From positions 21,840 through 53,839 of the forward strand of contig NZ_LZLY01000097.1 of the NCBI RefSeq assembly GCF_001673535.1: DNA of 32,000 nucleotides. Reading direction: 5' to 3'. A program made the position numbers and the translations under genes. The notes under the pieces were generated by a model that was given only the letters and a program-made list of their open reading frames with translations, did no database searches and was not told where the DNA came from. This document shows, one piece after another, positions 5,260-25,625 of the stretch. Within the stretch, counting starts at the first letter, position 1; every line of letters starts with the position of its first letter. The stretch is from Mycobacterium sp. 1081908.1. GTDB lineage: Bacteria > Actinomycetota > Actinomycetes > Mycobacteriales > Mycobacteriaceae.

Positions 5260-5684
5260 TCAGCACCGCGAAAACACTGTTGGGCGTCGGCTCGGCGACG
5301 TTGCTGGGGCTGACGGGCCTGCTCGTTGGCCCCGGACGCGCACACGCCGACCCGGTCTGGCATCAGGTCGTGTACATCGTCTCGGCCAAGGTTCCGGCCT
5401 ACGTCGACATCTTCTACCAGGATCAGGACCCGACGCTGTTCTCCGACTACAGCCACAACAACTACGCGTTCACCCCGCAGGTGCACGCCGACGTCGCCCC
5501 GGGTAAGCCGTGGGTTCAGCCGGTGAACCTGTTGAACCCCGATCAGTGGGCGATGGTCACCGCGACCACCGGTCGTGAACCGCTGGCACAGGGCGGCATT
5601 CAGTGCGACCTGTCGGTGGACGGAAAGGTCGTGGTCTCCAACATCGGCCCCAAGGGCGCGCTCTGTTCGCTGCGAACCTGGTGA
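5256..5684 (+). CDS. MmpS-like exported/membrane-anchored protein
   Basis: ATG 5256 overlaps the hydratase stop (ATGA), with SD GAAGGA at 5245-5250. The N-terminal signal/anchor is MISTAKTLLGVGSATLLGLTGLLVGPGRAHA. The C-terminal IQCDLSVDGKVVVSNIGPKGALCSL resembles the MmpS pattern (C.I.VDG.V......A.C). Confidence 0.6.
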   Translation: MISTAKTLLGVGSATLLGLTGLLVGPGRAHADPVWHQVVYIVSAKVPAYVDIFYQDQDPTLFSDYSHNNYAFTPQVHADVAPGKPWVQPVNLLNPDQWAMVTATTGREPLAQGGIQCDLSVDGKVVVSNIGPKGALCSLRTW

Positions 5685-6301
5685 ACCACCCAGGCGGGAG
5701 GCACGTCCTCGATGGGCTGCGGCTCGCCTTCCAGCTGGCGCAGATAACTTTCGACCAGTTCTAAGGTTTCGGCGTGACCGCCGGAAATACCGACAGCCTG
5801 CTCGAGCACCAAAAACCGCGACAGGCTGGTCATCAGGACCGTCCAAACCACCGGCGGCATTTCGGCGCCGTCCACCCCGTAGCGCTGCAGCGCTGCGGCC
5901 ACAGCTCGGCGCTGTTCCTCGCGGAATCGTTCGGCGTAGTAAGCGATTTCGGCTCGCATCTCCTTGCGGTGGTTGGCCAGCGCCATGAATTCCATCGAGA
6001 TGCGGGTGAACGCGGGATCGGTGCCGAATCTCCACAGCGCCCACAACGGCTGAGGGCAGTCCAGCGCGCGAGCTTGCGCCTGAAGACCCTCCTCGGCCCG
6101 GCGGCGGAAGACCTCGAGGAAAAGCTCGTCCATGGTGCGGAAGTAGTAGTGCACCAGCTGTGGTTTCAAACCCGCCTTGCTCGCCAGCCGGCGCGAGGTC
6201 ACCGCGGCGTAGCCCTCTTCGATCATCAGCCGCTCGGCCGCGTCGAGCAGCAGGGCGCGATTCTTCGCGTCCGGCGCTCCGATCCTGCGGGCCGAAGTCA
6301 T
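5600..6301 (-). CDS. TetR-family transcriptional regulator
   Basis: The track ORF is 5600..6337. I prefer ATG 6299-6301 (MTSARRIG...). The N-terminal HTH is RALLLDAAERLMIEEGYAAVTSRRLASKAGLKPQLVHYYFRTMDELF. The gene is divergent from the P450 at 6487. Confidence 0.85.
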   Translation of the reverse strand: MTSARRIGAPDAKNRALLLDAAERLMIEEGYAAVTSRRLASKAGLKPQLVHYYFRTMDELFLEVFRRRAEEGLQAQARALDCPQPLWALWRFGTDPAFTRISMEFMALANHRKEMRAEIAYYAERFREEQRRAVAAALQRYGVDGAEMPPVVWTVLMTSLSRFLVLEQAVGISGGHAETLELVESYLRQLEGEPQPIEDVPPAWVVHQVRSEQSAPLGPMLETTTFPSTDRSH

Positions 6302-6389
6302 ATCCCTGCTCCGTATTTCTGCGTAGATGCCGACCACACGGATCGTATCGCGGCACGGCGTTGCGACCTTGACCCTGACAATACCGCCA

Positions 6390-7807: not shown

Positions 7808-9592
7808 TCAGGGTTGAGGTGCGGTTTCGATCTGCTCGAAGATCCCGGAGAACTCGAACGGGGTTTGCGCTATGCCGCTGCCGTCGACGGCGTCCACCGC
7901 GCCCAACGTGCCCGTGATGTCGCGGGGCAGTTCCCACATCGACAGCTCGCCGATGTCGTGCTGCTGGGCGAAAGCCGTCAGCTGTTGGGCGTCGGCGAGG
8001 CCGAAGATTTCGCTGGGATCGTCGTTGATTCCGATCAGCGGCGTCACCCCGAGCATGTGCCACGCCTGCTGGCTGGTCAGCGACGGATAGAGCGTCATCA
8101 GCTGGCTGTGGGTGGCCGTCGCGGCGTCGATCGCGTACGCGCCCATGCCCGGGTTGCCGGTCTGGTCGAAACCGTTGCCGTAGTCCATGGCCATGATGTT
8201 CACGCGAGATATGTTCACGCCGTTGGCCGTTGCGGTCTGGATGACGTTCAACCCGCCGCCCTGCCCCTCGACCAGGCCGCTCGGCAGCACCGGAAGCGTG
8301 TAGGACACCGTCACGGGCGTGCCGTTCGCCGCCTCCTGCTGCTGCAGGATCGCGATGGCCTTCGATTGGGTGGTCATCGCTTGAGTGTTGCCCTGCAGCG
8401 CACCTTCGACGTCGAAGTCGAGGTTGTAGATCTTGTAGGTGTTCACAATCGTCGCGTACTGCTGCGCCAGCGCGGTGGGTGTCTGACCGTTGACGGCGGA
8501 TAGGTCGGTGCCGAACGCGCCGCCAAACGAGATAGTCCCGTTAATGCCGGCGGCTTTCATGTTGGCGATCTGGTTGTCGATGAACGCGCTCTGGGAGCCG
8601 CCCGTCACGTCGTACGCCGAATAGCCGCCCCAGGAGGCCTGACCCGTCGGGTCGGCGTTGATGAAGGCAAGCGTGGCGTTCTTGACTCCGTGCTGGGCCG
8701 CCGTCGCAAAGTCATATCCGTTCGGCCCGGGCCAGAGCGTTATGTCGACGTAGGGCGAGTACTCCCCGGAACCCGTTCCGCCGGTGCCGGTTCCGGTGCC
8801 GGTGCCGGTCCCCGAACCGGTCCCGCCGAGGCTGGTGCCGTCGTGGCCCCTGCCGCCATTGGCGCCCGGATTGCCGAACATCGCCGAACCTTGGCCACCG
8901 GAGCCGCCCGCGCCGCCGACGCCGCCGACGGCCCCGCTGCCGCCGTCACCCCCGTTACCGCCCACGCCGCCATTGCCGTACAGCAGGCCGCCGCTACCGC
9001 CGGCGCCGCCGGTGCCCCCGGCGCCGCCGTTGATACCCGGGGAGCCGGCGGCACCGAGCGTGCCGGTCCCGCCGGTACCGCCCCGGCCGCCGTCGGCGAA
9101 CAGGCCGGCGTCGCCGCCCCGGCCGCCCGGCTTACCCGGAAGGCCGGACCCCCCGTTGCCACCGTTACCGGCCAGCAGCCCGCCGGGCCCGCCGTTCTGC
9201 CCGGGTGCCCCGTCGGCGCCGTCGCCGATCAGCGGGCGACCCAGCATCGCGTTCGTAGGCGCGTTGATCACGCCCAGCACGTCGGCCTCGAGGGCCTGCA
9301 AGGGCGACGCGTTGGCCGCCTCGGCGGCCGCATACGCGTTGCCCGCGCCGTTGAGCGCCTGCACGAACCGCCGGTTGAAGGTCGCCGCCCGGGCGTTCAG
9401 CGACTGATAGGCCCGGGCATAGGCGGAGAACAGCGACGCGATCGCGGCCGACACCTCATCGCCGGCGGCGGGCAGCACGGCGGTGGTTCCGACGGCCGCG
9501 AGCGCATGGGCCGCCGTAAGTGTCGAACCGATGCCTGCCAGCTCCGTGGCCGCCGCGGCCACTGTCGCCGGTGCGGCAATGAGAAACGTCAT
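7808..9592 (-). CDS. PE-PGRS family protein with C-terminal glycoside hydrolase family 18 (chitinase/lysozyme-like) domain
   Basis: 594-aa ORF. The PE domain is MTFLIAAPATVAAAATELAGIGSTL...YAAAE (YxxxE at aa 87-91). Gly-rich GGxGG repeats span aa ~123-256 and a Gly-Thr/Ser linker spans aa 257-276. GH18-type motifs follow: YSPYVDITLWP, YNLDFDVEG (nt 8405-8419 encode DFDVE) and NIMAMDYG. Confidence 0.85.
   Translation of the reverse strand: MTFLIAAPATVAAAATELAGIGSTLTAAHALAAVGTTAVLPAAGDEVSAAIASLFSAYARAYQSLNARAATFNRRFVQALNGAGNAYAAAEAANASPLQALEADVLGVINAPTNAMLGRPLIGDGADGAPGQNGGPGGLLAGNGGNGGSGLPGKPGGRGGDAGLFADGGRGGTGGTGTLGAAGSPGINGGAGGTGGAGGSGGLLYGNGGVGGNGGDGGSGAVGGVGGAGGSGGQGSAMFGNPGANGGRGHDGTSLGGTGSGTGTGTGTGTGGTGSGEYSPYVDITLWPGPNGYDFATAAQHGVKNATLAFINADPTGQASWGGYSAYDVTGGSQSAFIDNQIANMKAAGINGTISFGGAFGTDLSAVNGQTPTALAQQYATIVNTYKIYNLDFDVEGALQGNTQAMTTQSKAIAILQQQEAANGTPVTVSYTLPVLPSGLVEGQGGGLNVIQTATANGVNISRVNIMAMDYGNGFDQTGNPGMGAYAIDAATATHSQLMTLYPSLTSQQAWHMLGVTPLIGINDDPSEIFGLADAQQLTAFAQQHDIGELSMWELPRDITGTLGAVDAVDGSGIAQTPFEFSGIFEQIETAPQP
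8765..8824 (-). repeat. Imperfect hexanucleotide (GGTNCC)n tract encoding the Gly-Thr/Ser linker
   Basis: Five consecutive GGTNCC units at 8783-8812 on the plus strand (ggtgcc ggttcc ggtgcc ggtgcc ggtccc), with degenerate flanks. The tract encodes GTGSGTGTGTGTGTGGTGSG. Confidence 0.5.
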
Positions 9593-9762: not shown

Positions 9763-10053
9763 CTAGGCGAGCGTCCTGCCGACGAAATAGCAGGCGAGCA
9801 ACGCGACGCCCATCAGCACAACCCAGGCGTCCGTCAGTCGACACAGCAGGGCGGGGGCTTGCCGCACCTCCATGAATTCCCGAAAGATGATGCGCACCTT
9901 GACGAGTGCGATCACGATCACGCTCGAGGTGACGACAGCGCTGGCCCTCAGCGTTCCGTCGAGCGAGTGATCGATCCATAGGTAGGCGAGCGTCAACGAC
10001 GCCAGCACGAGCCAGACGACCAGCAGTCTCCTGTTGAATTTGATGTCGATCAC
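9763..10053 (-). CDS. Small 3-TM membrane protein, prokaryotic cytochrome oxidase subunit IV (CyoD)-like
   Basis: GTG 10051-10053 overlaps the upstream stop (GTGA). The 96-aa product VIDIKFNRRLLVVWLVLASLTLAYLWI...VVTSSVIVIALVKVRIIF...AWVVLMGVALLACYFVG has three hydrophobic spans. Its size, topology and position after a subunit III-like gene fit the subunit IV family. The family call is tentative. Confidence 0.55.
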   Translation of the reverse strand: MIDIKFNRRLLVVWLVLASLTLAYLWIDHSLDGTLRASAVVTSSVIVIALVKVRIIFREFMEVRQAPALLCRLTDAWVVLMGVALLACYFVGRTLA

Positions 10054-10613
10054 CTCACCACGTACAACAACGCGAAGATGAGCACCCAGAGGAAGTCGAC
10101 GGTGTGCCAGTATGTGGCGCAGGTTTCCACGAGCTCCTGGGACCGCCGCAGTTGGTAGACGACGACGCCGAGGACGACGAAGCCGATCAAGAGGTGCACG
10201 AAGTGGATTCCGGTGAGGAAGAAGTAGTAGGTGAAGAAGTCGTTGCTGTCCAAGCCATTTCCCATGCGAACCAACCGGGCCCACTCGAACACCTTGAAAA
10301 ATAGGAACACTGCGGCCAGTGCGACCGTGATGAAGACGTCCCGCAGGGCCGCGCGGTAGGCGCCGGCGCGGGACGACTGAACGCAGCGCGCCACCGACCA
10401 CGAGCTCAGCAGCAAGACCAGGGTGTTGAAGACCCCGATACGCAGGTCCAGCTGCGCCTGCGAGTGCAAGAAGAGCTCGGGACTTCGGGCGCGATAGAAC
10501 AGGTAGAAGCCGAAATACCCTGTGAAGACCAGGGTCTCGAACAACACAAACGCCCACATGTCGGGCTGGCCGGGCACGAACCTGGCGCTCTTCTTCTCGG
10601 CCAGGTCGGTCAT
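10050..10613 (-). CDS. Heme-copper oxidase subunit III-like (CoxIII/CyoC/NorE-like) membrane protein
   Basis: ATG 10611-10613 overlaps the upstream stop (ATGA). The 187-aa product carries subunit III hallmarks FFTYYFFLTGIHFVHLLIGFVVLG and TYWHTVDFLWVLIFALLYV, and has five hydrophobic spans. Confidence 0.8.
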   Translation of the reverse strand: MTDLAEKKSARFVPGQPDMWAFVLFETLVFTGYFGFYLFYRARSPELFLHSQAQLDLRIGVFNTLVLLLSSWSVARCVQSSRAGAYRAALRDVFITVALAAVFLFFKVFEWARLVRMGNGLDSNDFFTYYFFLTGIHFVHLLIGFVVLGVVVYQLRRSQELVETCATYWHTVDFLWVLIFALLYVVR

Positions 10614-11425
10614 CGCGCAACGGCCTTCCGCGGCGCGCGCTCGGGCAACGGCCCGTCGCCGAAGTCCTCGCGCTGGATCATCCGAAACAGCATGACGATG
10701 AAAGTGACTTGGTAGACGCCGAACACCACCATGTCCAGCCACCACGCGATCTGACCGTTCCACGCCAGCACGCCACGCCGGAAGATCCAGCACGGCGCCA
10801 CGACGACCTCGGTCAGGGCGTTGCACAGGTTGAGGTAGCCGAACCACTTGGGGAACACCCGATTCTTGTCGAGCAGAATCGCGAGCATCCAGATCAGCGA
10901 GCCGATCAGGAAGACTCCCATGGTTCCGTCGAAAGACAGGAAAGCGAAGTCGTAGAGCCAGCCGATCGCTTCGGGGTCTCGCTCTTCTCGCAGCGTCCCG
11001 ACGACCAGCGCGATGTTGAGCAGCAGCATCCCGGGAACCGCACTGAACGAGTAGATAAGCAGATACGAGTATCCGAAGGCGCGGCTGACCGACATTCGCC
11101 GCATCGAATAAGCGATGAGGGCGTTGTTGGTCGCGATCATGCCGCTGATGGCGAAGATGACACCGAATCCAACGGGAATCCCGAGGTGGCGTTCATGGAA
11201 CCAGTGCACCTGCGTCGCGAGGTCCCACGTCGGCTGCGGCGGCGGCTGTACCTGCGCCACGATGAAGAACACCGGGAAGAAGAAGTTGTAGAAGACGACC
11301 AGCGCCGCCCACGCCAGCCAGAGCTCGCGCCTGGGGTCGCGCCGCAGGTGCCAGGCGATCCGGTGGTGCAGCGGTCCCGGGGGCGGCGTGGCTGGAGAAA
11401 CCGCCTGCGCCGCTACGGCACTCAC
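10610..11425 (-). CDS. Polytopic membrane protein, paralog B (function unknown)
   Basis: GTG 11423-11425 overlaps the upstream stop (GTGA). The 271-aa product has multiple TM spans. It aligns by eye with paralog A (MRRMS.SRAFGY / RRMAHRTPIFSY; RDPE / RSPE; VFPKWFGYLNL / VFGRWVAHFNL; AWNG / AWDG; ...RE C-terminus). Confidence 0.7.
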   Translation of the reverse strand: MSAVAAQAVSPATPPPGPLHHRIAWHLRRDPRRELWLAWAALVVFYNFFFPVFFIVAQVQPPPQPTWDLATQVHWFHERHLGIPVGFGVIFAISGMIATNNALIAYSMRRMSVSRAFGYSYLLIYSFSAVPGMLLLNIALVVGTLREERDPEAIGWLYDFAFLSFDGTMGVFLIGSLIWMLAILLDKNRVFPKWFGYLNLCNALTEVVVAPCWIFRRGVLAWNGQIAWWLDMVVFGVYQVTFIVMLFRMIQREDFGDGPLPERAPRKAVAR

Positions 11426-12207
11426 GCGCTTACCAGTTCGTCGCCGTGCTGACGGTTCTCGGCGCGCTCCCGGTAGATCGCTTGCCCCAGAACCAAACCC
11501 ATCACGATGATCCAGACGGCGATGGCGACGTTTTTCACCCAGAACGACAAAAAGCCGTCCCACGCCAGCGGTCCGGTCAATGACACGCCGACGAAGGCGG
11601 CGGGCACCAGGGCGGCCGCCACCAAAAGGTTGAAGTGAGCCACCCAGCGGCCGAATACCGGCCGCGGCTGGTCGTCGAAATAGATTGCCAGGGCCAGGAT
11701 CACGCTTTGGCCGATCAGAAACGGGACCACGATGGTGAACGTGATCCAGCCGAAGTCGTTGAGCAGCTGCGTCAGCTCCGGGCTTCTTTCGGGACGGAAG
11801 GCGGCCAGCAGCCAGCACACGTTGGCGACGAGGAACAGGGTCGGGCCGCCGGCCACGCAACCCAACATCGCGTAGGAGAAGATCGGCGTCCGATGTGCCA
11901 TCCTGCGGATCTGCAACACGATCAGGGTCAGGACCGGGACCAGGCAGACCCCGAACCAATTGAAAACGATCATGCTGTAGCGGATCTGTGGCAGCCGCGC
12001 CGGATCGCGATAGAACGCGGCCACCTGATCGGCCGACATGCTGGGCGACATCGGCGGATTGAAGCCCGGAAACAGGACAAAGCAGGCGACCCAGATGATC
12101 ACCGTCGCGGGCAACGTCCACAGCAGGATCAGCTCACCGTCGGTACGGCGCAATCGAGTTCGCGGAGATCGGCGGCGCTTTGGGTTGTTCTCGCCAACGT
12201 CGGACAT
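11422..12207 (-). CDS. Polytopic membrane protein, paralog A (function unknown)
   Basis: The track ORF is 11422..12240. I prefer ATG 12205-12207 (MSDVGENNPKRRR), preceded by GAAGGAG with a 7-nt spacer. The 261-aa hydrophobic protein is the first gene of a four-gene overlapping operon. Confidence 0.7.
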   Translation of the reverse strand: MSDVGENNPKRRRSPRTRLRRTDGELILLWTLPATVIIWVACFVLFPGFNPPMSPSMSADQVAAFYRDPARLPQIRYSMIVFNWFGVCLVPVLTLIVLQIRRMAHRTPIFSYAMLGCVAGGPTLFLVANVCWLLAAFRPERSPELTQLLNDFGWITFTIVVPFLIGQSVILALAIYFDDQPRPVFGRWVAHFNLLVAAALVPAAFVGVSLTGPLAWDGFLSFWVKNVAIAVWIIVMGLVLGQAIYRERAENRQHGDELVSA

Positions 12208-12256
12208 CGCCTGGCTCCTTCGCTGCGACGGCCTGGACACGGTTCGTGAGCGAAAC

Positions 12257-12296
12257 TAGCCGAACGGCTATCCTCGGGTCAATAGCCGATCGGCTA
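12257..12296. promoter_or_regulatory. Twin palindromic operators TAGCCGAACGGCTA and TAGCCGATCGGCTA
   Basis: Two copies of the TAGCCG-N2-CGGCTA inverted repeat, at 12257-12270 and 12283-12296 (the second is a perfect 14-bp palindrome), with centres 26 bp apart. They lie in the 100-bp divergent region between the membrane operon (start 12207) and the TetR (start 12308). Confidence 0.55.
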
Positions 12297-12307
12297 CGCT
12301 TCCGGGT

Positions 12308-12889
12308 GTGGTTTCCCCGCAGACCCGCAGCCGGTTTCGCTTCATCACGCGCAGTGCCGCGCAGACCCGCATTCTCGATGCGGCGCTGCAGTTGATCGCG
12401 CAGCACGGCGTCGGCGGAACCTCGCTGCAGATGATCGCCGATGCCGTCGGGGTCACGAAGGCCGCCGTGTACCACCAGTTCAAGACCAAGGAGCAGATCG
12501 TCCTCGCCTTGACCGAGCGGGAACTCGGCGGTCTCGAGGAGGCCCTGGAGGCGGCCGAGGCCGACGACCATCGGACCAGGGCGCGGGAGGCGCTGCTCGA
12601 CAGGGTCATCGACGTCGCCGTCGAACGTCGCGGCGCCGCAAGCACGCTGCAATTCGACCCTGTCATCGTGCGACTGCTGGGCGAACACGAGCCCTTCCAG
12701 CAATTCATCCAGCGGCTCTACAGCGTGCTGCTCGACGACGCGGCCGAGGACGCGCGGGTGTCGGCGGCCGTGCTGTCGGGCGCGATCGCGGTCGGGGTCA
12801 TCTCGCCTCTGGTGGCCGACATCGACGACGACGCCCTGCGTTCCCAGCTGGGCCGCATCACCCGCCGGCTGATCGACGCGGCCGACTGA
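12308..12889 (+). CDS. TetR-family transcriptional regulator
   Basis: 193-aa ORF with a GTG start. HTH: RILDAALQLIAQHGVGGTSLQMIADAVGVTKAAVYHQFKTKEQI. The gene is divergent from the membrane operon. Confidence 0.85.
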   Translation: MVSPQTRSRFRFITRSAAQTRILDAALQLIAQHGVGGTSLQMIADAVGVTKAAVYHQFKTKEQIVLALTERELGGLEEALEAAEADDHRTRAREALLDRVIDVAVERRGAASTLQFDPVIVRLLGEHEPFQQFIQRLYSVLLDDAAEDARVSAAVLSGAIAVGVISPLVADIDDDALRSQLGRITRRLIDAAD

Positions 12890-12950: not shown

Positions 12951-13226
12951 ATGAGCAAAGTCGCGCGTGTCGCCGCCGCAGCGATCATGGTCACCGCCGG
13001 CTTGGGCACCGCGACGGTCGCCCGCGCCGACAATCCGCCGTGGCCGTTCGTGGGCTATCACTGGTGCCCGGGGCAGATGTTCGATCCCTCCTGGGGACCC
13101 CAGTGGGATCCGACCACCTGCCACGACGCGCACCATCGGGACGTGGACGGCACGGTCCACAACTTCGACTACTGGGGACCCAGCCCGTTCCAGGACTGGC
13201 CGGAGATTCCGAACACCCGGCCGTGA
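12951..13226 (+). CDS. Small exported Trp/Pro/His-rich protein (function unknown)
   Basis: 91-aa ORF with G/C-rich third codon positions. The signal peptide MSKVARVAAAAIMVTAGLGTATVARA is followed by DNPPWPFVGYHWCPGQMFDPSWGPQWDPTTCHDAHHRD... No clear SD was seen. Confidence 0.55.
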   Translation: MSKVARVAAAAIMVTAGLGTATVARADNPPWPFVGYHWCPGQMFDPSWGPQWDPTTCHDAHHRDVDGTVHNFDYWGPSPFQDWPEIPNTRP

Positions 13227-13242: not shown

Positions 13243-13647
13243 CTAAGTGTCGCCGCGCTCCCAAACCTGTGTTCCGTCATGCGCGTTGCAGACGAGGAAC
13301 AGGCCGTCCGGCGCCTGCGCGACGTAGTACTCCGGGAAATCGACGCAAGACGAGCCCTCGACCTTGACGCCGGCCATCGGGGGGGACCGGAACCACCGGG
13401 GCTCGTACCTCCTGGGCGAGCCGCAGAACATCAGGCGTCCCGGCTGCGTAGCGAAAGACACGTAATAGTCGGCGGTTCCGAACACGTAATACGTGGTGTT
13501 GTCGCACGGCGCACCGAGCACCTGGTGCGGCATGATCCCCGGCGTGCAATCCGGGTAATCGCAATTAACCGGCGCGGCGGCGGCCTGCGGCGGCGCCAAG
13601 ACACCGAGGCCGAGCAACACGGCAAGCGTTGCCATTATGAATCGCAC
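13243..13647 (-). CDS. Exported Cys-rich protein (function unknown)
   Basis: 134-aa ORF. The signal peptide MRFIMATLAVLLGLGVLAPPQAAA is followed by a mature part with 6 Cys (PVNCDYPDCTPG...APCDN...FCGSP...SSCVDF...LVCNAHDG). Confidence 0.65.
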   Translation of the reverse strand: MRFIMATLAVLLGLGVLAPPQAAAAPVNCDYPDCTPGIMPHQVLGAPCDNTTYYVFGTADYYVSFATQPGRLMFCGSPRRYEPRWFRSPPMAGVKVEGSSCVDFPEYYVAQAPDGLFLVCNAHDGTQVWERGDT

Positions 13648-15775: not shown

Positions 15776-17458
15776 TCAGGTGGCGAACATGTCCTTCCAC
15801 GTTTTCGGCGCCTTGGGCGACGTGGGCTTGACCAGATCCGATTGCCGGTAAACGTGGCCATCCGGGGTCACGTAGGTGCCGTTGCGCGGGTTGTACTGGG
15901 CGATCGCCACCGATGGACCGCTCTGAGACTCGTTGTGCCCGAATGCACTTGGCGCGGCCGAAGGCCCCGCGGGAGGCCCCGCCGGCGCCGCCGGCGCCGC
16001 AGCCGGCGCCGGCGACCCGGCGGGGGCAGCGGGAACGTCGATCGGCGCAATCGGTGACACCTCCCCCATCTGCGCCAACGGGCTGAGCGGCGCCGCGGGC
16101 GGCGGCAAGGCCGATGCCGGCGGCGTTCCCCGCGGCACCGCGCCCGGCGGCAGCGGCGTTCCCTCCACCGGCCCGAAGATTCTTTCGCGGTTCCAGTTGA
16201 CCCGGTCGTCGGGCGGGATGCCCTGCGCGATGAGGTTCGGGTCCAGCGGGTAAGTGCCGAACACGTGCTGTCTCATCGCCAACGGCTCGAAAGGCTTGTC
16301 GCTCTCGCAGATTTCGACGGTGGGCGCGCGTTTCCCCGGCTGTCCCATGCAGGGATAGTTTCGGGCACCGCGCACCGCGATGGGCGAATCCTGCGGCAGT
16401 TTGCAGTACAGCCCGTCCGGCGTGTCGATGGTGCGGGTGTCGGCTGCGGAACGCCATTGGCTCGGCGGCAGGAAGCCGACCGTGCAGGCGGGTGGGTCAC
16501 TGATGATGAGATTGAAGGCGCCCGTGGCCAATCCGGTCGGCGACTTCGTGCCGACGAACGACTGAATCGCCGCGGTGAACGGCGGCAGCAAAACCAGAAT
16601 CTGTTCGATCGAAGCGTGATAGGTCACGCCGATCTGGCCGATCGTGGTCAGGTTCGCAAGCAGCACCGGCAACGTCGGTTTGATTTGGTCGAGCAGCCGG
16701 GACGCCTCGTTGAGGGCTCCAGGCCCCTGTTGCAGCAGGGTGCGGAACTGTGGGTCGTCCTTCGCCAGCTGGCCGCTGAATCCGGCGAGGCTGCGCGCCC
16801 ACGTCCGGATCGAATCGGCGGTCTGGGCTTGCGCGTCCAGGAAGGGCCCGGTGTCTTCGGTCAGGTTCCGTGTCTGGTCGGCGACACCGTTGAGGTCACC
16901 CGAGACCCGTGCCGAACTGTCGAACAGCGATCCGAAATCGTAACCGCTGCCGTTGAATGCCTTGAACGACTCGTCGAGCAACTGACCGAGCTTGCCCTTG
17001 GGGATGCTGTTGATCAACGCGCTGGACTGGTCGAGCACTGGGCCGATCGGTTGGGGGATCGTCGTGTCGTTCATCGCGATCACCGAGCCGTCGTGCAGGT
17101 AAGGCGGCGAGTCGTTGCGGGGCCGCAGATCGACGTAATACTCGCCCACCGCGGAGATGCTCAGCACCTCCGCCTTCAGGTCCGCCGGTATCTTCGGCGA
17201 AGTATCAAGGGACAGCGTGGCTTTCGCGCCATCGGGGGTCAGCCCCACCGCGGTCACCTTGCCGATCTGCACCCCTCGGTAGGTCACATTGCTGAAGCGG
17301 TACAGGCCACCGGTGGCGGGCAGTTTCAGCGTGACCGTCATCTTGCCGATGCCGAGCAGGGTCGGCGCCTGGACGTACCACAACGCCATGACGACCACAC
17401 CGACGATCCCGACGATCGTGAAGATCGCCAACTGGATACGGACAAACCGGGTCAGCAT
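15776..17458 (-). CDS. mceF: Mce-family substrate-binding protein MceF
   Basis: 560-aa ORF and sixth mce gene. An N-terminal TM (IQLAIFTIVGIVGVVVMALWYV) is followed by an MlaD/MCE segment (MTVTLKLPATGGLYRFSNVTYRGVQIGKVTAV) and a Pro/Ala-rich C-terminal region. The start codon directly abuts the mceE stop. Confidence 0.9.
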   Translation of the reverse strand: MLTRFVRIQLAIFTIVGIVGVVVMALWYVQAPTLLGIGKMTVTLKLPATGGLYRFSNVTYRGVQIGKVTAVGLTPDGAKATLSLDTSPKIPADLKAEVLSISAVGEYYVDLRPRNDSPPYLHDGSVIAMNDTTIPQPIGPVLDQSSALINSIPKGKLGQLLDESFKAFNGSGYDFGSLFDSSARVSGDLNGVADQTRNLTEDTGPFLDAQAQTADSIRTWARSLAGFSGQLAKDDPQFRTLLQQGPGALNEASRLLDQIKPTLPVLLANLTTIGQIGVTYHASIEQILVLLPPFTAAIQSFVGTKSPTGLATGAFNLIISDPPACTVGFLPPSQWRSAADTRTIDTPDGLYCKLPQDSPIAVRGARNYPCMGQPGKRAPTVEICESDKPFEPLAMRQHVFGTYPLDPNLIAQGIPPDDRVNWNRERIFGPVEGTPLPPGAVPRGTPPASALPPPAAPLSPLAQMGEVSPIAPIDVPAAPAGSPAPAAAPAAPAGPPAGPSAAPSAFGHNESQSGPSVAIAQYNPRNGTYVTPDGHVYRQSDLVKPTSPKAPKTWKDMFAT

Positions 17459-18889
17459 CTACGAGCCCCCGTCCGTCGGCTGGCTCGGGGTCGGGGTCGC
17501 GCCCGGCACCGGGGCACCCTGGTCGGCCGGCGCGGCAGCGCCCGCCGGCGGCGGACCGGGCAGCGTCGCTGTCGGCGACTGCTGCGCGTCGGGACCGAGC
17601 CACCTCAGGCCCGCGATCAACGGCGACACCGGTGGCGGTGCCGCGGGCGGCGGTGTGTCTGCCGATTGCTGGTTCACCGGCCCCGGCGCCGCGGCCGGCG
17701 GCGGTCCGGGCAGCGGCCGCCCCCAGGGTGGCGGTGGCCCGAAGGGTGCCGGTTCCCCGGTCGGTCCGGGCTTGCTGAGCGCCCCGGGCGCCCCGGGCGG
17801 TGCACCGTATCGGAATTGCAGGTATTCCGGATCCGCGGGCCCGGGCACGGCCTCGGCACCGATCCGCTCCCAATGGGTGCCGCGGAGGATGCCCTTGCGC
17901 AGCCCGGCGTTCGTCAGATCGATGATGAAATACCCGTTGAGGTAGTCGCCCCGGATGTACCGGTCGATGATGCTCTGGGCCCACGGGAACGTCGGCGCGT
18001 ACGCGAGGGCGGCGTCCAAATCCGGCCCGATGTCGGCGAGCGCACCGAGTGCCGGCGCGAGGTTCGTCAAGTTCTTCACCAAGTCATCGCCCGCGTCGTT
18101 GACGAGCCTGGTCGCGGTGTTGCTGAACGTCCCGAGCTTGTTCAGCGCGGTCGTGATGCGGGGGCGCTCCTTGATCAGGACGTCCAGTGCGGGCGGAATC
18201 TTGTACAGCGCCTGGGTGATCACGTCGCGCTGGGCGGCGAACGTGCCGGACAGGCGATTGAGGGCATGTATCGACGCGACGAGATTGTCGCGCTGCTGGT
18301 CGAGTGTGCCCACGAACCGGTCGAGGCGCTCGAGCAGATCCCGAACGGCGCCTTCGTTTCCCGAGAGGGCGGCGTTGAAGTTGTGGATGATGTCCCCGAA
18401 TTGACCCAGCCCGCCGGCGTTGAGGATCACCGACAGCGACGACAGCGTCTGTTCGGTCGACGGATAGGTGGACGAGCGGTTCAGCGGGATCGTGGCGCCC
18501 GGCTGCAGGCGTCCGGACGCCGGCTGGCCCAGCGGCGGATTGAGCGCCAGATGCATGGAACCCAGCAGGCTGGTCTGGCCGACGCTGGCCACCGCGTTGG
18601 CGGGGATCACCGTGCCGGGCTTTACCGAGATTTCAACGTCGGCGTGCCATCCCCGCACCGTCATCTTGCTGATGCTGCCGACGATGACATCGTCGATCAT
18701 TACCGGCGAATTCGGTTCCATCGTAACGACGTTGGCGAGTTCCACGTGGTAGGTGGTGGCACCCGGGCCTCGTCCCACCGCGCCCGGCAACGGCAGCGAG
18801 TTCAGGCCGTTGAACGCGCATCCGCTCACCGCGAGCATGACGCAGCAGACGATGCCGAGCACGCGCCGCATCGCGATCCGGGGGGTCAT
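17459..18889 (-). CDS. mceE: Mce-family lipoprotein MceE (LprK/LprN-like)
   Basis: 476-aa ORF with the lipobox MRRVLGIVCCVMLAVSGC. It has an MCE domain (YHVELANVVTMEPNSPVMIDDVIVGSISKM) and a long Pro-rich tail. It overlaps the mceD stop by 4 bp. Confidence 0.9.
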   Translation of the reverse strand: MTPRIAMRRVLGIVCCVMLAVSGCAFNGLNSLPLPGAVGRGPGATTYHVELANVVTMEPNSPVMIDDVIVGSISKMTVRGWHADVEISVKPGTVIPANAVASVGQTSLLGSMHLALNPPLGQPASGRLQPGATIPLNRSSTYPSTEQTLSSLSVILNAGGLGQFGDIIHNFNAALSGNEGAVRDLLERLDRFVGTLDQQRDNLVASIHALNRLSGTFAAQRDVITQALYKIPPALDVLIKERPRITTALNKLGTFSNTATRLVNDAGDDLVKNLTNLAPALGALADIGPDLDAALAYAPTFPWAQSIIDRYIRGDYLNGYFIIDLTNAGLRKGILRGTHWERIGAEAVPGPADPEYLQFRYGAPPGAPGALSKPGPTGEPAPFGPPPPWGRPLPGPPPAAAPGPVNQQSADTPPPAAPPPVSPLIAGLRWLGPDAQQSPTATLPGPPPAGAAAPADQGAPVPGATPTPSQPTDGGS

Positions 18890-20331
18890 GGTTGCGCTCC
18901 TTCACCCGGGAGCAGCATGTCCTGAAGGTTCGCAGGGGCGCCCGGCGGCGGCGAGGGCGGCGGTGCTGCGGCGGGCGGCGGTTCCCCCGGCGGGGGTTCC
19001 GGCATCGCCGCGCCCGGGATCCGCCCCATCGGCACCGAACCCGGCGGCCCAACCGGGTCTCCCGGCAGCCCGGTGTACGCGGAAACGGCCGGCGGCATCA
19101 ACGGCGGGCCGGGCCTGGGCCCCTCACCGCCGGGCTTCAGCCGATCCTCGCTGTAGACAACGTTTTCGGGGGCGAACGAGGGAGCCAGGATCGGGTTGAC
19201 CGGAATCGGGAGATAGTTGAAGTTGACGATGAAGTTCGGGTTGAACACCTTCAGCGCCGGGCTCAGATACAGGCCGCACAGCTTGCCCGTCTCTACGGCG
19301 GTGACGTTCTCGATGGCCCCGATGCCCGCACACCACGCATACGTCGGATTGGTGAAGTTCTGCAGGCCGACGCCGCCGCGGATGTTGCCGGAGTCAGGGT
19401 CGTAGGCGTTGTAGGCGTTTGCGAGCGCGGTCGGCGAGATGTGTAGCACGTTTTTCAACGCCATCTTTTGGTCGACGAGTATCTGTGTCAGGTCGGCCAG
19501 CCGCGAAATCTGTTCGGAGGTCGCATCACGACTGCCGGCGATGAACCGCTGCACCTCGCCGACCGCGTTCGCCAGGTCCGTCAGCGCCGCGTCCAAATCG
19601 GACTTGTTGTCGTCGAGCACGCTGGTCAGCGTCGCCAGCCGGTTGTCGAACTGCACGATCTGCACATTGCTTTCGCGCAGCGCCCCGACGAATGCCTGCA
19701 GGTTCTTGATGATGTCGACCAGGTTGCCGCTGCCTTCGGCGAAGACCCGGGCGACCCCGGACAGTTGGGCCAGCGTCTGGTGCAGCTTCTCGCCGTTGCC
19801 GCCGCCCAGCGCGTCGGCTGCACTGTCGATGAACCGCGCCACCGACGGAGTGGACACCTTGCTGTTGGGACCCAATTCCGTTGCCAGACGCATCAATTGC
19901 TCTTTGACCTGGTCCCATTCGACGGGCACCGCCGTCCGTTCGATCGGTATCACCGCGCCGTCACGCATGGTGGGGCCGCTCGACCGGTAGGCCGGCGTGA
20001 GCTGTACGTAGCGCGCCGCCACCAGGTTTTGGGCGACGATCACCGCCTTCGCGTCCGACGGAATGGGCACGCTGCGATCGACGTGCATCACCAGCTTCGC
20101 CCGGGTCCCCTGGGGCTGAATGGACGAGATGGTGCCGACCTTCATGCCGGACACCCGCACGTCGTCGCCGGGATAGATCGCGGTGGCCGTGGGGAAGTAA
20201 GCGGTGATGGTCGTCGGACGAAAGAAGGTGTTGCGGATGGCGATCGCCGCGCCGACGACAACGAGACCCGCCAGCACGATCGCCAGTCCCACCTTGAGCT
20301 TGTTGCGCGGAATCGCCCGTAGCCCCGTCAT
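18886..20331 (-). CDS. mceD: Mce-family substrate-binding protein MceD
   Basis: The track ORF is 18886..20451. I prefer ATG 20329-20331 (MTGLRAIPRNKLKVGLAIVLAGLVVVGAAIAI), which overlaps the mceC stop (ATGA). It has an MCE domain (ITAYFPTATAIYPGDDVRVSGMKVGTISSI) and a Pro-rich tail. Confidence 0.9.
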   Translation of the reverse strand: MTGLRAIPRNKLKVGLAIVLAGLVVVGAAIAIRNTFFRPTTITAYFPTATAIYPGDDVRVSGMKVGTISSIQPQGTRAKLVMHVDRSVPIPSDAKAVIVAQNLVAARYVQLTPAYRSSGPTMRDGAVIPIERTAVPVEWDQVKEQLMRLATELGPNSKVSTPSVARFIDSAADALGGGNGEKLHQTLAQLSGVARVFAEGSGNLVDIIKNLQAFVGALRESNVQIVQFDNRLATLTSVLDDNKSDLDAALTDLANAVGEVQRFIAGSRDATSEQISRLADLTQILVDQKMALKNVLHISPTALANAYNAYDPDSGNIRGGVGLQNFTNPTYAWCAGIGAIENVTAVETGKLCGLYLSPALKVFNPNFIVNFNYLPIPVNPILAPSFAPENVVYSEDRLKPGGEGPRPGPPLMPPAVSAYTGLPGDPVGPPGSVPMGRIPGAAMPEPPPGEPPPAAAPPPSPPPGAPANLQDMLLPGEGAQP

Positions 20332-21410
20332 GGCCGCCCTCCCGGGTCCTGGTTGAACGGGAACGGGAAGAAGGCCCGCGGCCCGGCGGTGTCCGGCGGC
20401 TGACCGGGCGCGCCGTAGGCGCGGAACCCGAAGGCGTAGTCGAACAACCACTGGAAGAATTCAAGCTGGAAAAGGTTGGGGATGAACGGGTTGTAGTAGT
20501 AGCCGCTCGAGACGGTCTCCCCCTGCGTCAGCTCGTATTTCGCCAGTCCGGGAAGCGCTTTGGCGAGATTGTCGCGGTTCTTTTCCAGGACCGCCGTCAC
20601 GGAGTTCAGTTTTTCCAGGGTCGGCGCCAGCTTCGCTTCGTTGTCGTGCACTATGCCGGAGAGCTGCCGGGCCACCGCGGACGTGCTGGCCAGCAGCCGC
20701 ACGATCGCCTGGCGCCGCGCCACCAGCATCGACAATAAGTCATTGGCGTTGAGGATCAGTGTGTTCAGCTGCTGGCTACGTTGCCCGAGGACGCCGGTGA
20801 CGTCGGCGGCGCCCTTGAGCAACTGCCCGAGCGTCTGGTTGCGGGCGTTGAGGGTCTGGGAAAGCCGGCTCACCCCGTCGAACGCGGGACCCAGTTGCGG
20901 CGCAACCTGATTCAGCGTCGCCGACAGCGTGTCAAGGGACTGGTTGAGCGACTCGGTGTTGGTTCCCTGCAGGTCGGTCGTCAGGTCGTTGACGGCCTCG
21001 GACAGCGAATACGGCGAGGAGGTGCGCGACACCGGGATGACGGCCATCGGATGCAAGTTGCCGGTGCCCGCGGAGTCGACCGTGAGCACCCGCTGGCCCA
21101 ACAGCGAACCGGTCTTGATGTGTGCGGTGCTGGCCGAGCCGAGCAGGATGTTGCCCTTGGCGGTGAACGTCACCAGCACGTCGCCGTGCTGCAGCGACAT
21201 GCCCGTCACGCTGCCGACCTTGATTCCCGAAATCGTCACGTCGTTGCCCAGCGCGAGGCCACCGGCATCAGCGAACAGCGCCTGGTAACGGACCGTGGTG
21301 GCCCGCTGGACCAGCTGATCGGGGTTCAGCCCGACGGCGATGACCAGGGCTATGAGGACGGCGCCGATGAATCCGGCCTTGATGAGGCCCGCTCCGCGAT
21401 ACTTATTCAT
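20328..21410 (-). CDS. mceC: Mce-family substrate-binding protein MceC
   Basis: The track ORF is 20328..21533. I prefer ATG 21408-21410 (MNKYRGAGLIKAGFIGAVLIALVIAVGL), which overlaps the 3' end of mceB by 8 nt. MCE domain: YQALFADAGGLALGNDVTISGIKVGSVTGM. Confidence 0.9.
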   Translation of the reverse strand: MNKYRGAGLIKAGFIGAVLIALVIAVGLNPDQLVQRATTVRYQALFADAGGLALGNDVTISGIKVGSVTGMSLQHGDVLVTFTAKGNILLGSASTAHIKTGSLLGQRVLTVDSAGTGNLHPMAVIPVSRTSSPYSLSEAVNDLTTDLQGTNTESLNQSLDTLSATLNQVAPQLGPAFDGVSRLSQTLNARNQTLGQLLKGAADVTGVLGQRSQQLNTLILNANDLLSMLVARRQAIVRLLASTSAVARQLSGIVHDNEAKLAPTLEKLNSVTAVLEKNRDNLAKALPGLAKYELTQGETVSSGYYYNPFIPNLFQLEFFQWLFDYAFGFRAYGAPGQPPDTAGPRAFFPFPFNQDPGGRP

Positions 21411-22443
21411 CGGGGTCCTTCGGTTCCGCGCACCGCCCGGTGGTCTGGTGTTTGATGCCCACTTCCACCGTCCGGTACTGCAAGTCGGACACCCGCAGCG
21501 ACAGTCCGCACAGGTAGTAGGGGAACCATGCACCGTACGACCCGAGCCTGAGCAGTTTGCGGTAGTTGTGCGGCAACTTCTGCAGCGAGGTGTCGATCAG
21601 GTTCTTGTCCTTGTCCAGCAGCGGGGCCAGCCGATTCGCCTGGTCCACCGTCGCGGCCAGCGGTTGGCGGGCGCGGGTGAGCAGATCCGCGATCGATGCG
21701 GTGCCGTTGTCCAGGGCCGTGATCGCGGTGCCGATGGTGTCACGATCCTGGTCGAATCCACTGACCAATTTCTCCAGGCGGTCGATGGCGCCGGAGAACT
21801 TGGTGCCGTCCTTGTCGACGGTGGCCACCACTGCGTTGAGGTTGTCGATCAGCTCCTGCACCGTCTGGTTGTTGTCGGCCAACGTGTTGGAGAACGACGA
21901 CGTCTTCGACAGTAGCGACTGCAGGGTCCCGCCCTCGCCCTGGAAGACCTGGATGAGCGCCGCGCTCAGCGCGTTGACGTCTTGCGGATTGAGGCCCTGG
22001 GTAACGGGTTTCAGCCCGCCCAGCAGCAGATCGATGTCCAGGGCCGGCGCCGTCCGATCGAGCGGGATCTCCGATCCCGCCGGCAGGACCTTGGTGGACC
22101 CCGGGCCGTCGGTCAGCTCGAGATAGCGATCACCGACCAGGTTCAGGTAGCGAACCACGGCGCGGGTGCCGGTGGTCAGCACCACGCTGCGGTCGGCGTC
22201 GAACTTCACCTCGACCTTCTTGTCGGCGCGCAGCTTGACGCTGTTGACCGTGCCCACCCGGATGCCGGCGACCCGGACGGTCTCGCCGGTCTTCAGCCGC
22301 GACACGTCGGTGAAGAGCGCCGAATACCCGTTCGTCGAACCGGTGGTGTACTGCCCAAAGATGAAGAACAGGAACACGGTCAGCACGACCATCACGGTGG
22401 CGAACGCCCCGAACTTGAGGATCATCCCGCGCGAGCCGGTCAT
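21403..22443 (-). CDS. mceB: Mce-family substrate-binding protein MceB
   Basis: The track ORF is 21403..22626. I prefer ATG 22441-22443 (MTGSRGMILKFGAFATVMVVLTVFLFFIF), which overlaps the mceA stop (ATGA). MCE domain: YSALFTDVSRLKTGETVRVAGIRVGTVNSV. Confidence 0.9.
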   Translation of the reverse strand: MTGSRGMILKFGAFATVMVVLTVFLFFIFGQYTTGSTNGYSALFTDVSRLKTGETVRVAGIRVGTVNSVKLRADKKVEVKFDADRSVVLTTGTRAVVRYLNLVGDRYLELTDGPGSTKVLPAGSEIPLDRTAPALDIDLLLGGLKPVTQGLNPQDVNALSAALIQVFQGEGGTLQSLLSKTSSFSNTLADNNQTVQELIDNLNAVVATVDKDGTKFSGAIDRLEKLVSGFDQDRDTIGTAITALDNGTASIADLLTRARQPLAATVDQANRLAPLLDKDKNLIDTSLQKLPHNYRKLLRLGSYGAWFPYYLCGLSLRVSDLQYRTVEVGIKHQTTGRCAEPKDPDE

Positions 22444-23717
22444 CCGGGCATCCCGATCTGCATGGTGTTGCGAGGCGGTCCGTCGATCGGCCCGTACAGC
22501 AGCTGCTTGAGCGCATCGGAGTTGAGCAGCAGTTGCTGGTTGCCGTACTGCGTGGGGTTGGAGCCGTTGTCCGTCACCACGAACGGCGGCGCGACGTCGA
22601 AGGGCACCACCGGAAGGTCCCGGCATTGCGGCCCGCCGGTCGCCGCCACCTTGGGCAGGTTGGACGGGTAGCGGTAACGCTCGGCGCCGAGGCCGAGGAC
22701 GACGGTGACCTTAACCATCGGCTCGGGCAGGTCCGGCGCATGCAGGTTCCCCAGCGACCCGGCGATGCCGCAGTACAGCGCCTGATGGTACTGGTTGAGC
22801 AGATCGGTGGTCGGCACCAGCAGATGCAGGTCGTCCGTCAGCGCTTGCCGGTTGCCGCCGACCACCTCATTGCCCAAGTCCGCCAAGCCAATCGAGCTGA
22901 TCAGGAAGGCATCCAGGTTTTGTTGCTCGTCGACGATCGTCTTGCTGATCCGCACGGCATTGTCGGTCGTGGCCAGCAGGTGCGGCGCCGCGTCGGCGTA
23001 GGCCTCGCTCACCGCGGGCAGGGCCTCGAGGTCATGGCTCAGCGCGGGAAGGCTGGGCTCCTGGGTGGCCAGGAATGAATCCAGATCGCGCAGCATCTGG
23101 CCGATCTTGTGGCCGCGTCCGTTGACCGCAGACGCTAGTGCGCCGAGCGTTTCGTTGAGCTTGGCGGGATCGATCGTCGACAGCAGCGATGTGAGTTGCT
23201 GGAACACCGTGTTGATTTCGACGGTGACATGTTTGCCCTCAAGCACCTGACCCGCGCGCAGCGACTGCGGCGACGGCTCCGCGGGCGGTACCAGCTCAAT
23301 GAACTTCGCGCCGAACACCGTCGTCGACGCGATATCGACGAGAACATTGGCCGGGATGAGGTGCATCTGCGACGGTTGCATCGCGAGGTGCAGGACGGCT
23401 TCGCCGTTGGGCCGCACGTCGATTGAGGCGACCTTGCCCACCTCGACGCCACGCATCTTCACCTTGGCCTCGGGGTTCATCACCAGGCCGGCGCGCGGCG
23501 AGACGACGGTAACGGGCACGCTCGTGGTGAAGGAGCCCTGAAATAGGCCTATCGCGACGGCGAAGACCAGGCCGATGAGGACGATGGTCGCCAGCCCCGC
23601 CAACGGCCGCACGTACGACTGCGCGCCGAAGTGGCGCCCGGGCGATGCCGCGACGGGCCGTGCGGCACTGGTGGTTTCGGACCGGTGAATGGGGCCCGGC
23701 CCGAGGTCACGCGTCAC
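22440..23717 (-). CDS. mceA: Mce-family substrate-binding protein MceA
   Basis: 425-aa ORF with a GTG start at 23715-23717. A TM (LAGLATIVLIGLVFAVAIGLF) is followed by an MCE domain (VTVVSPRAGLVMNPEAKVKMRGVEVGKVASI). Confidence 0.9.
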   Translation of the reverse strand: MTRDLGPGPIHRSETTSAARPVAASPGRHFGAQSYVRPLAGLATIVLIGLVFAVAIGLFQGSFTTSVPVTVVSPRAGLVMNPEAKVKMRGVEVGKVASIDVRPNGEAVLHLAMQPSQMHLIPANVLVDIASTTVFGAKFIELVPPAEPSPQSLRAGQVLEGKHVTVEINTVFQQLTSLLSTIDPAKLNETLGALASAVNGRGHKIGQMLRDLDSFLATQEPSLPALSHDLEALPAVSEAYADAAPHLLATTDNAVRISKTIVDEQQNLDAFLISSIGLADLGNEVVGGNRQALTDDLHLLVPTTDLLNQYHQALYCGIAGSLGNLHAPDLPEPMVKVTVVLGLGAERYRYPSNLPKVAATGGPQCRDLPVVPFDVAPPFVVTDNGSNPTQYGNQQLLLNSDALKQLLYGPIDGPPRNTMQIGMPG

Positions 23718-23736
23718 TGTCCTTTCACCACCTTCC

Positions 23737-24585: not shown

Positions 24586-24604
24586 GGTATGCCCCTATAC
24601 CTCC

Positions 24605-25423: not shown

Positions 25424-25625
25424 CGGCCTCAGTCCCTTCCAACATTTTCGAGACCGATGGTCTTGTTCCGCCGAATGACAGGCTGTAGATTTGGCTGGAC
25501 CGACGGCCACAAACGCGAGCTACCACAGTCGAAATGCGTTGCGGACAGCCGCATTCCGGCATTCGCCTCGGTGCGACAGCCACTACCATCCTCACGCCAC
25601 TCCTCCGTTCTGTCGCGTGAGTTGG

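Follow-up and report, generated by a model that had tools for sequence, protein, structure and literature searches.

What do relatives of oxidase subunits III and IV do in a place where no oxidase is encoded? Subunits III and IV are free of cofactors, and their role in oxidases, as well as that of NorE and NorF in nitric oxide (NO) reductases, is still debated. The question is raised by four minus-strand genes, here called A, B, C and D, in a stretch of 32,000 nucleotides (nt) from the slow-growing Mycobacterium sp. 1081908.1 (contig NZ_LZLY01000097.1, positions 21,840 to 53,839), the whole of which is referred to as the window. A and B encode paralogous proteins with six transmembrane (TM) helices, C a protein that resembles subunit III and D a small protein that resembles subunit IV, and a TetR-family regulator gene is divergent from the four. 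An original prediction, made from the letters and open reading frames of the window, had described them as a TetR-controlled membrane operon.

Sequence comparison points to the following answer: C and D are an accessory pair of the NorE/NorF-like kind, and their partner is predicted to be a family of proteins with six TM helices (6-TM) that is not an oxidase. What was already known are the database annotations of an orphan 'cytochrome c oxidase subunit 3 family' and 'subunit IV family', together with the named NorE and NorF; the pairing with a 6-TM partner is what appears to be new. The literature searched held no description of a NorEF-like pair coupled to the 6-TM family, nor of the 6-TM family itself.

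Homology of the accessory pair

Protein C scores 43.8 bits against Pfam COX3 (PF00510; cut-off 23.8, E = 3.8e-11), with a match over profile positions 80-255 that corresponds to the last five helices, and protein D scores 38.7 bits against COX4_pro (PF03626; cut-off 28.9, E = 1.3e-9). By clearing these cut-offs, the 187-amino-acid (aa) and 96-aa 3-TM proteins bear out the subunit III-like and subunit IV-like character that the original prediction had given them. The NCBIfam equivalog cut-offs are all missed by C, which yielded 76.7 versus 190 for CtaE, 67.8 versus 223.75 for CyoC and 62.8 versus 239.9 for QoxC, and D is likewise below that of TIGR02229 (caa3 subunit IV; 16.9 versus 37.25). Among PDB structures, C is best matched by mycobacterial CtaE chains (e.g., 6adq_G, E = 3.7e-13, residues 24-187). 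No PDB sequence match was obtained for D.

The identity of C is 35-41% to COX3-like proteins linked to 6-TM genes in other phyla, 39% to the NorE of Thioclava (over 175 aa), 34% to that of Labrenzia, 26% to CtaE and 22% to CyoC. Taken as a group, true NorE proteins and comparable stand-alone pairs are at 35-40%. When C was searched plasmid-wide with tblastn, the best matches were COX3-like genes that follow a 6-TM gene (Rhodococcus, Mycobacterium branderi, Pseudonocardia and Novosphingobium), the next best were stand-alone COX3 and COX4 pairs (Azospirillum and Azoarcus), together with true NorE genes. The Thioclava and Labrenzia matches sit in regions annotated as norC-norB-norQ-norD-norE-norF clusters. 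A rough neighbour-joining tree places the 6-TM-linked, stand-alone and NorE proteins together, C included, and apart from CtaE and CyoC. The small protein D carries a KVR...FME(L/V)R motif that is common to the small proteins of other 6-TM-linked units, and its match to Labrenzia NorF is weak (E = 6e-4 in a small database). These values mark C and D as NorE/NorF-like homologues of subunits III and IV of oxidases. The resemblance to NorE/NorF noted in the original prediction hence stands as homology, given the 39% identity to Thioclava NorE and the tree, and fails as regards linkage to norCB, which is absent.

Search for a linked catalytic subunit

The comparison covered 84 loci of other Mycobacteriaceae, searched by tblastn with the five proteins (TetR, A, B, C and D), and 91 distant loci. 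Queries with CyoB, CyoA, NorB and NorC presented no match at E < 1 in the window, and none at E <= 1e-3 in the 84 mycobacterial and 91 distant loci. The window thus lacks a catalytic subunit I or II, as had been supposed, all four queries returning only noise (E > 1), and a hidden catalytic subunit nearby is excluded by the searches of the window and of about 175 loci. The operon lies outside any heme-copper enzyme locus.

The 6-TM protein family

Proteins A and B are true paralogues (32% identity over 156 aa, BLASTP E = 2e-15), of which A is the 'generic' one, nearest to the single-copy proteobacterial members. Neither has a match among Pfam families, NCBIfam families or PDB sequences, so the impression that the two belong to no recognizable family survived a comparison with curated databases. 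Relatives of A at E <= 1e-3 amount to 2,633, all of them 'hypothetical' or inconsistently labelled, and B has 950 relatives. At E <= 1e-3, a joint A and B profile reaches 1,545 clusters (50% identity), 987 of which are matched at E <= 1e-10. Members are distributed among Gammaproteobacteria (Spongiibacter, Zhongshania), Alphaproteobacteria (Novosphingobium and other sphingomonads), Betaproteobacteria (Azoarcus) and several actinobacterial genera, and an HHalign comparison shows the mycobacterial profile to be homologous to the proteobacterial one (E = 9e-46).

The source labels of the A/B homologues are 'hypothetical' or conflict with one another (MFS, DUF998, Frag1/DRAM/Sfk1, MnhF). The MFS, DUF998 and Frag1/DRAM/Sfk1 profiles were matched neither by A or B nor by 15 distant members at E <= 1, and profile scans gave no support to the label MnhF. 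A descent of A/B as degenerate COX3 or COX4 relatives was also discarded, with an HHalign probability below 1%. Two apparent fusions among the database representatives, of A with B and of B with C (P0290 and P0241), look like frameshifted read-throughs. A natural fusion is presented by a metagenome protein of 705 aa (P0306), in which a 6-TM domain is joined to a soluble DUF1214 domain; in Spongiibacter (L085, 14887-17639), DUF1214-type proteins are encoded 3-5 kb downstream of the 6-TM, COX3-like and COX4-like genes.

The AlphaFold2 model of B presents a predicted local distance difference test score of 79, a predicted template modelling score of 0.74, and six long TM helices plus two short ones. 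In a Foldseek search of this model against the PDB, the best E was 0.32 and template modelling scores were below 0.4; the top matches (adiponectin receptors, G-protein-coupled receptors and rhodopsins) were treated as non-specific helical-bundle matches. The residues that never vary in 48 A/B-family sequences comprise Glu, Arg, Asp, Tyr, Trp, Pro, Gly, Phe, Ala and a single Met; His and Cys are not among them. This argues against ligation of heme or copper by A/B, in line with the earlier remark that they conserve few His residues. According to the positive-inside rule, both termini of A/B would be on the inside, with conserved PPPxP, FRPxRDP and GPxAWxG motifs predicted to face outwards and RRM and D-x4-P-x-FP-x-W to face inwards.

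Occurrence of the association in other lineages

The trio of 6-TM, COX3-like and COX4-like genes is present in Spongiibacter thalassae, in Pseudonocardia, on a plasmid of Mycobacterium branderi, on Novosphingobium plasmids beside TonB-dependent receptors, and on pRB98 of Rhodococcus oxybenzonivorans, where an mce operon of the same strand immediately precedes it. In a Pseudomonadota metagenome contig it comes after Rieske, P450 and GMC-oxidoreductase genes, and Mycobacterium sp. NPDC051804 has a second, paralogous cluster amid genes for an FAD-dependent oxidoreductase, a LigB-type dioxygenase and a hydrolase. The plasmid pAZKH of Azoarcus sp. KH32C (L093, 6950-9022) carries the trio in the rearranged order COX3-COX4-6TM, flanked on one side by a 2-hydroxyacyl-CoA dehydratase and its activase and on the other by acyl-CoA dehydrogenase, AMP-binding and thiolase genes. 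The 2-hydroxyacyl-CoA dehydratase family is oxygen-sensitive, and we take this context to be of an anaerobic type.

The metagenome set comprises 74 non-redundant loci with 6-TM genes, in 35 of which a 6-TM gene and a COX3-like gene are no more than 1.5 kb apart. The 6-TM genes often form tandems or are present more than once, with a maximum of five per locus. As judged from these sequences, the association of 6-TM with COX3/COX4-like genes reaches far beyond Actinobacteria, always without a catalytic subunit in the loci examined.

Two further genes that follow a 6-TM gene were considered as partners and rejected: the 185-aa gene of locus L086 is not COX3-like, and the 242-aa gene of L087 is a further 6-TM paralogue. 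The latter locus, a TARA metagenome contig (16560-20255), holds three 6-TM paralogues near AveC-like membrane proteins and a Rieske oxygenase with rubredoxin. It also holds a CbbQ/NorQ-type AAA protein and a VWA protein, the same kind of pair that accompanies norCB.

Operon structure and conservation

The features of the locus are presented in Table 1. Consecutive genes of the operon share 4 nt between stop and start, reading GTGA (A/B), ATGA (B/C) and GTGA (C/D), and every coordinate and feature that the original prediction had reported for the four genes holds in the sequence. For gene A, the ATG at 12207 was chosen over the upstream GTG at 12240 because AAGGAG lies 8 nt 5' of it and the homologues are likewise 261 aa long.

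Table 1. Features of the operon and its surroundings, numbered from the first nucleotide of the window.
Feature	Position	Strand	Description	Basis or remark
Gene A	12207 (ATG)..11422 (stop)	-	261 aa, 6-TM, unnamed family	Translation
Gene B	11425 (GTG)..10610 (stop)	-	271 aa, 6-TM, paralogue of A	Translation
Gene C	10613 (ATG)..10050 (stop)	-	187 aa, 5-TM, heme-copper-oxidase subunit III-like (NorE-like)	Pfam COX3
Gene D	10053 (GTG)..9763 (stop)	-	96 aa, 3-TM, subunit IV-like	Pfam COX4_pro
TetR-family regulator	12308..12889	+	193 aa, divergent from the operon	Pfam TetR_N
Candidate operator O2	12283..12296		Perfect 14-bp palindrome TAGCCGATCGGCTA, 12 bp 5' of the TetR start codon	Repeat search
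Candidate operator O1	12257..12270		14-bp palindrome TAGCCGAACGGCTA, 26 bp from O2 and 50 bp 5' of the gene A start codon	Repeat search
CYP150A6-type cytochrome P450	6487..7764	+	Convergent with the operon	PDB 6dcd, E = 3.8e-244; conserved neighbour, membership in the unit not shown
Second TetR gene	5603..6337	-	Divergent from the P450 gene	
PE-PGRS protein	7808..9592	-	C-terminal glycosyl-hydrolase-18 (chitinase-like) domain	Pfam PE 5.8e-30, PGRS, Glyco_hydro_18 6.6e-7
Small predicted secreted protein	12951..13226	+	91 aa	Signal-peptide-like N-terminus
Small predicted secreted protein	13243..13647	-	134 aa	Signal-peptide-like N-terminus
mce operon (complete)	15776..25510	-	Two MlaE-type permeases and six MlaD/Mce4_CUP1 proteins	

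The order of the divergent TetR gene and A-B-C-D is identical in 82 of the 84 mycobacterial loci, the remaining two being incomplete loci that are cut short, so the unit is indeed conserved in other genomes. The TetR gene has the same position and orientation in all 84, and the A/B junction is overlapping in most. Hence, A to D are a translationally coupled operon that is conserved as a block with the divergent TetR gene. The set takes in Mycolicibacterium fluoranthenivorans and Mycolicibacterium hippocampi; given that the former locus (L001) has a wholly different set of flanking genes, for a DMFA2_C protein, an MFS permease and a gamma-glutamyl transpeptidase, the five genes travel as a self-contained unit. 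A scan of genome contigs gave close mycobacterial loci for all of the best 80 matches, among which the nearest is that of Mycobacterium sp. 1554424.7, with a protein B that is 93% identical.

The P450 gene adjoins gene D in 72 of the 84 loci, tail-to-tail in most slow growers, and an orthologue was not detected in the Mycolicibacterium loci L001, L002 and L081. In the window, the PE-PGRS gene sits between D and the P450 gene. It looks like a lineage-specific insertion, since D and the P450 gene are about 40-60 bp apart in most related mycobacterial loci. With its own divergent TetR gene, the P450 gene represents a second TetR-controlled unit, placed tail-to-tail with the operon. On the other side, the two small predicted secreted proteins adjoin the operon's TetR gene. 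Neither has a Pfam match, and the syntenic locus of M. marinum encodes a 96-aa Pilin_Mycobact protein in their place.

Regulator and candidate operators

The divergent regulator matches Pfam TetR_N with 63.4 bits (cut-off 24, E = 1.7e-17). Named regulators of NCBIfam are matched in the N-terminal DNA-binding part only, best by AcrR/MtrR-type efflux repressors, and no equivalog cut-off is reached. The motif TAGCCGNNCGGCTA has exactly two matches in the window, even when one mismatch is allowed, with 0.04 expected; these are the palindromes O1 and O2 of Table 1. It is also found in the intergenic region between TetR and A in 81 of the 84 mycobacterial loci, including distant Mycolicibacterium, and an arrangement of two sites at 25-26 bp spacing is common to the loci in which TetR is 78-95% identical to that of the window. 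The comparative evidence for the TAGCCGNNCGGCTA palindromes as a candidate TetR operator is strong, and the dedicated repressor control proposed earlier gains support from this conserved site between TetR and A. A simple sigma-70 scan matched no promoter, such a scan being uninformative for mycobacteria.

Two TetR lineages occur beside the operon, 78-95% and 58-66% identical to the window TetR, while A to D stay 80-94% identical (e.g., L005 versus L006). Loci with the window type have two strict palindromes 25-26 bp apart, and those with the other type mostly have one. These comparisons suggest a replacement of the regulator with a retained operator half-site.

Genomic context

In the window, the operon is placed between the complete mce operon and the CYP150A6-type P450 gene. 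Around the metagenome loci, 229 neighbour proteins were assigned to Pfam families as a qualitative census, without comparison against a genome background; the neighbour genes came from a crude open reading frame caller, by which small genes such as COX4 are under-called. The families counted include TetR_N (13 of 229), aldehyde dehydrogenase and short-chain dehydrogenase/reductase (SDR; 9 each), FAD or amine oxidase (about 8), acyl-CoA dehydrogenase (7), luciferase-like monooxygenase and APH-type kinase (6 each), AveC-like (5), and TonB receptor, CoA-transferase and enoyl-CoA hydratase (4 each). Respiratory or denitrification genes were absent among the neighbours in the window and in the metagenome census. 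In Rhodococcus, Pseudonocardia, sphingomonads, Spongiibacter and Azoarcus, the trio is embedded in clusters that are rich in TetR genes and carry genes of oxidative and lipid catabolism. The genomic setting is catabolic, and neither respiratory nor NO-related. Given this setting, and given that the 6-TM family reaches beyond the pair, the analogy with NorEF should not be taken as a functional assignment.

Proposed function and alternatives

The explanation we tentatively prefer, and consider possible rather than probable, is that of an operon under TetR repression, encoding an accessory complex of the cytoplasmic membrane that has no cofactors, would serve the catabolism of lipophilic compounds and would not be part of a respiratory oxidase. 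A and B would pair as a pseudo-symmetric heterodimer with 12 TM helices, which would take the place of subunit I or NorB and be docked on the C/D pair, the latter being the lipid-facing scaffold. TetR would sit on the two palindromes and leave them upon binding a lipophilic inducer. Most likely, the complex would move or hand over a hydrophobic substrate or product, in one direction or the other, between the membrane and cytoplasmic oxidative enzymes.

Several observations weigh against this explanation. The transport or hand-over role has gene context as its only basis, and that context is qualitative. TonB receptors account for about 2% of the 229 neighbours, probably not above the sphingomonad background, and the adjacent same-strand partners are heterogeneous, including TonB receptors, luciferase-like monooxygenases, APH, aldehyde dehydrogenase, AveC-like proteins, amine oxidase, P450 and SDR. 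The Foldseek search of the B model against the PDB gave no fold match to any solved transporter, and the internal 3+3 repeat typical of many secondary transporters was not detected in the 6-TM family. As far as the predicted topology tells, the conserved polar residues of A/B are mostly in loops, and not along a membrane-embedded pathway. Eleven metagenome loci that extend 900 bp or more to each side have 6-TM genes without COX3 or COX4 (the rest are too short), and the stand-alone COX3/COX4-like pair of Azospirillum has no 6-TM gene nearby; the partnership is therefore frequent, not obligatory.

Efflux is another possible use for a divergent TetR gene beside membrane proteins, with candidate operators in the shared intergenic region and a regulator whose N-terminal domain best matches AcrR/MtrR-type efflux repressors. 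A TetR-controlled tolerance device that exports or excludes a toxic lipophilic compound is nevertheless unlikely in our view: the match concerns a generic DNA-binding domain and reaches no equivalog cut-off, Pfam, NCBIfam and Foldseek show no similarity to known pump families, and the surrounding genes serve catabolism and uptake (mce, TonB receptors) instead of resistance. A/B might also be a membrane-embedded enzyme with a cofactor-independent reaction on a lipid-like substrate (e.g., hydrolysis, isomerization or cyclization), stabilized by C/D. A and B have invariant Arg, Asp, Glu, Tyr and Trp residues in common, the family recurs beside AveC-like proteins and diverse oxidoreductases, and the one natural fusion with DUF1214 fits as well. 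Yet no catalytic motif is recognizable, no enzyme family or fold is matched, the conserved residues cluster in loops, and a copy number that varies up to five per locus is unusual for a dedicated enzyme, which makes this possibility rather improbable.

The same low standing is given to a respiratory role, in which C/D, perhaps together with A/B, would dock on a heme-copper enzyme encoded elsewhere, e.g., the aa3 oxidase CtaCD. Under induction, C/D would replace or supplement CtaE/CtaF and thereby tune proton, O2 or NO access or the stability of the enzyme. C is a true homologue of CtaE, as the match to 6adq_G attests, and its nearest named relatives are the NorE proteins of norCBQDEF clusters, in which norEF are co-expressed with norCB (PMC12883736). 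However, about 175 loci have no linked catalytic subunit, true nor loci have no 6-TM gene, and the score of C is far from the 190-bit CtaE cut-off. Local control by TetR and catabolic neighbourhoods are a poor fit to respiration, and the Azoarcus copy lies among genes of the oxygen-sensitive 2-hydroxyacyl-CoA dehydratase family.

If the preferred explanation, an accessory complex for lipophilic-compound catabolism, is extended beyond mycobacteria, the 6-TM (in one or two copies), NorE-like and NorF-like trio might be a widespread cofactor-free machine, in which scaffold subunits of oxidases are re-used with a non-oxidase core from a new fold family (more than 1,500 clusters) and which moves or processes lipophilic catabolic substrates (e.g., terpenoid-, steroid- or lipid-like). 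This extension is slightly more doubtful. Were it true, the trio would represent a new class of transporter or enzyme and the first functional handle on NorE/NorF-type proteins. A conserved pair coupled to a different membrane core would show that the pair can work apart from heme-copper catalysis, and would offer a simpler system for its role. The 6-TM family itself is large, without its own Pfam model and without a solved relative, and has its place among the catabolic gene clusters of mycobacteria (environmental and opportunistic), rhodococci and sphingomonads, organisms employed in the breakdown of hydrophobic compounds or relevant to it. The conserved TetR gene and its candidate operator provide a direct experimental entry point.

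Comparison with known systems

In size and helix count, A and B are similar to DUF4386 (PF14329), an uncharacterized family of polytopic proteins of about 210 aa. Distant 6-TM members reach its profile (P0480 scores 28.2 versus a cut-off of 27.6, and three of 15 representatives match weakly, with a best E of 8.8e-5), although A and B themselves have no match even at E <= 1. The literature searched made no mention of DUF4386. With TetR/TetA and AcrR/AcrAB, the locus shares a divergent TetR gene and palindromic sites in the shared intergenic region; it differs in that A to D are in no known pump family and in that the 26-bp spacing of two sites is lineage-specific here.

CtaE/CtaF, CyoC/CyoD and QoxC/QoxD are homologous to C/D and present the same 5-TM plus 3-TM architecture, yet C is only 22-26% identical to CtaE and CyoC, is far below the equivalog cut-offs and is not encoded with subunits I and II. 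In NorE/NorF as in C/D, a COX3-family protein with 5 TM helices precedes a small one with 3, and neither has ligands for redox cofactors. In contrast with the nor clusters, no norC, norB, norQ or norD is present in the window or in the related loci, and the place of the partner is taken here by a 6-TM pair, whereas the true nor loci (L176-L178) have no 6-TM gene. The regulators also differ, those beside nor genes being of the Crp/Fnr type, while the operon of the window is under predicted TetR control and in a catabolic context.

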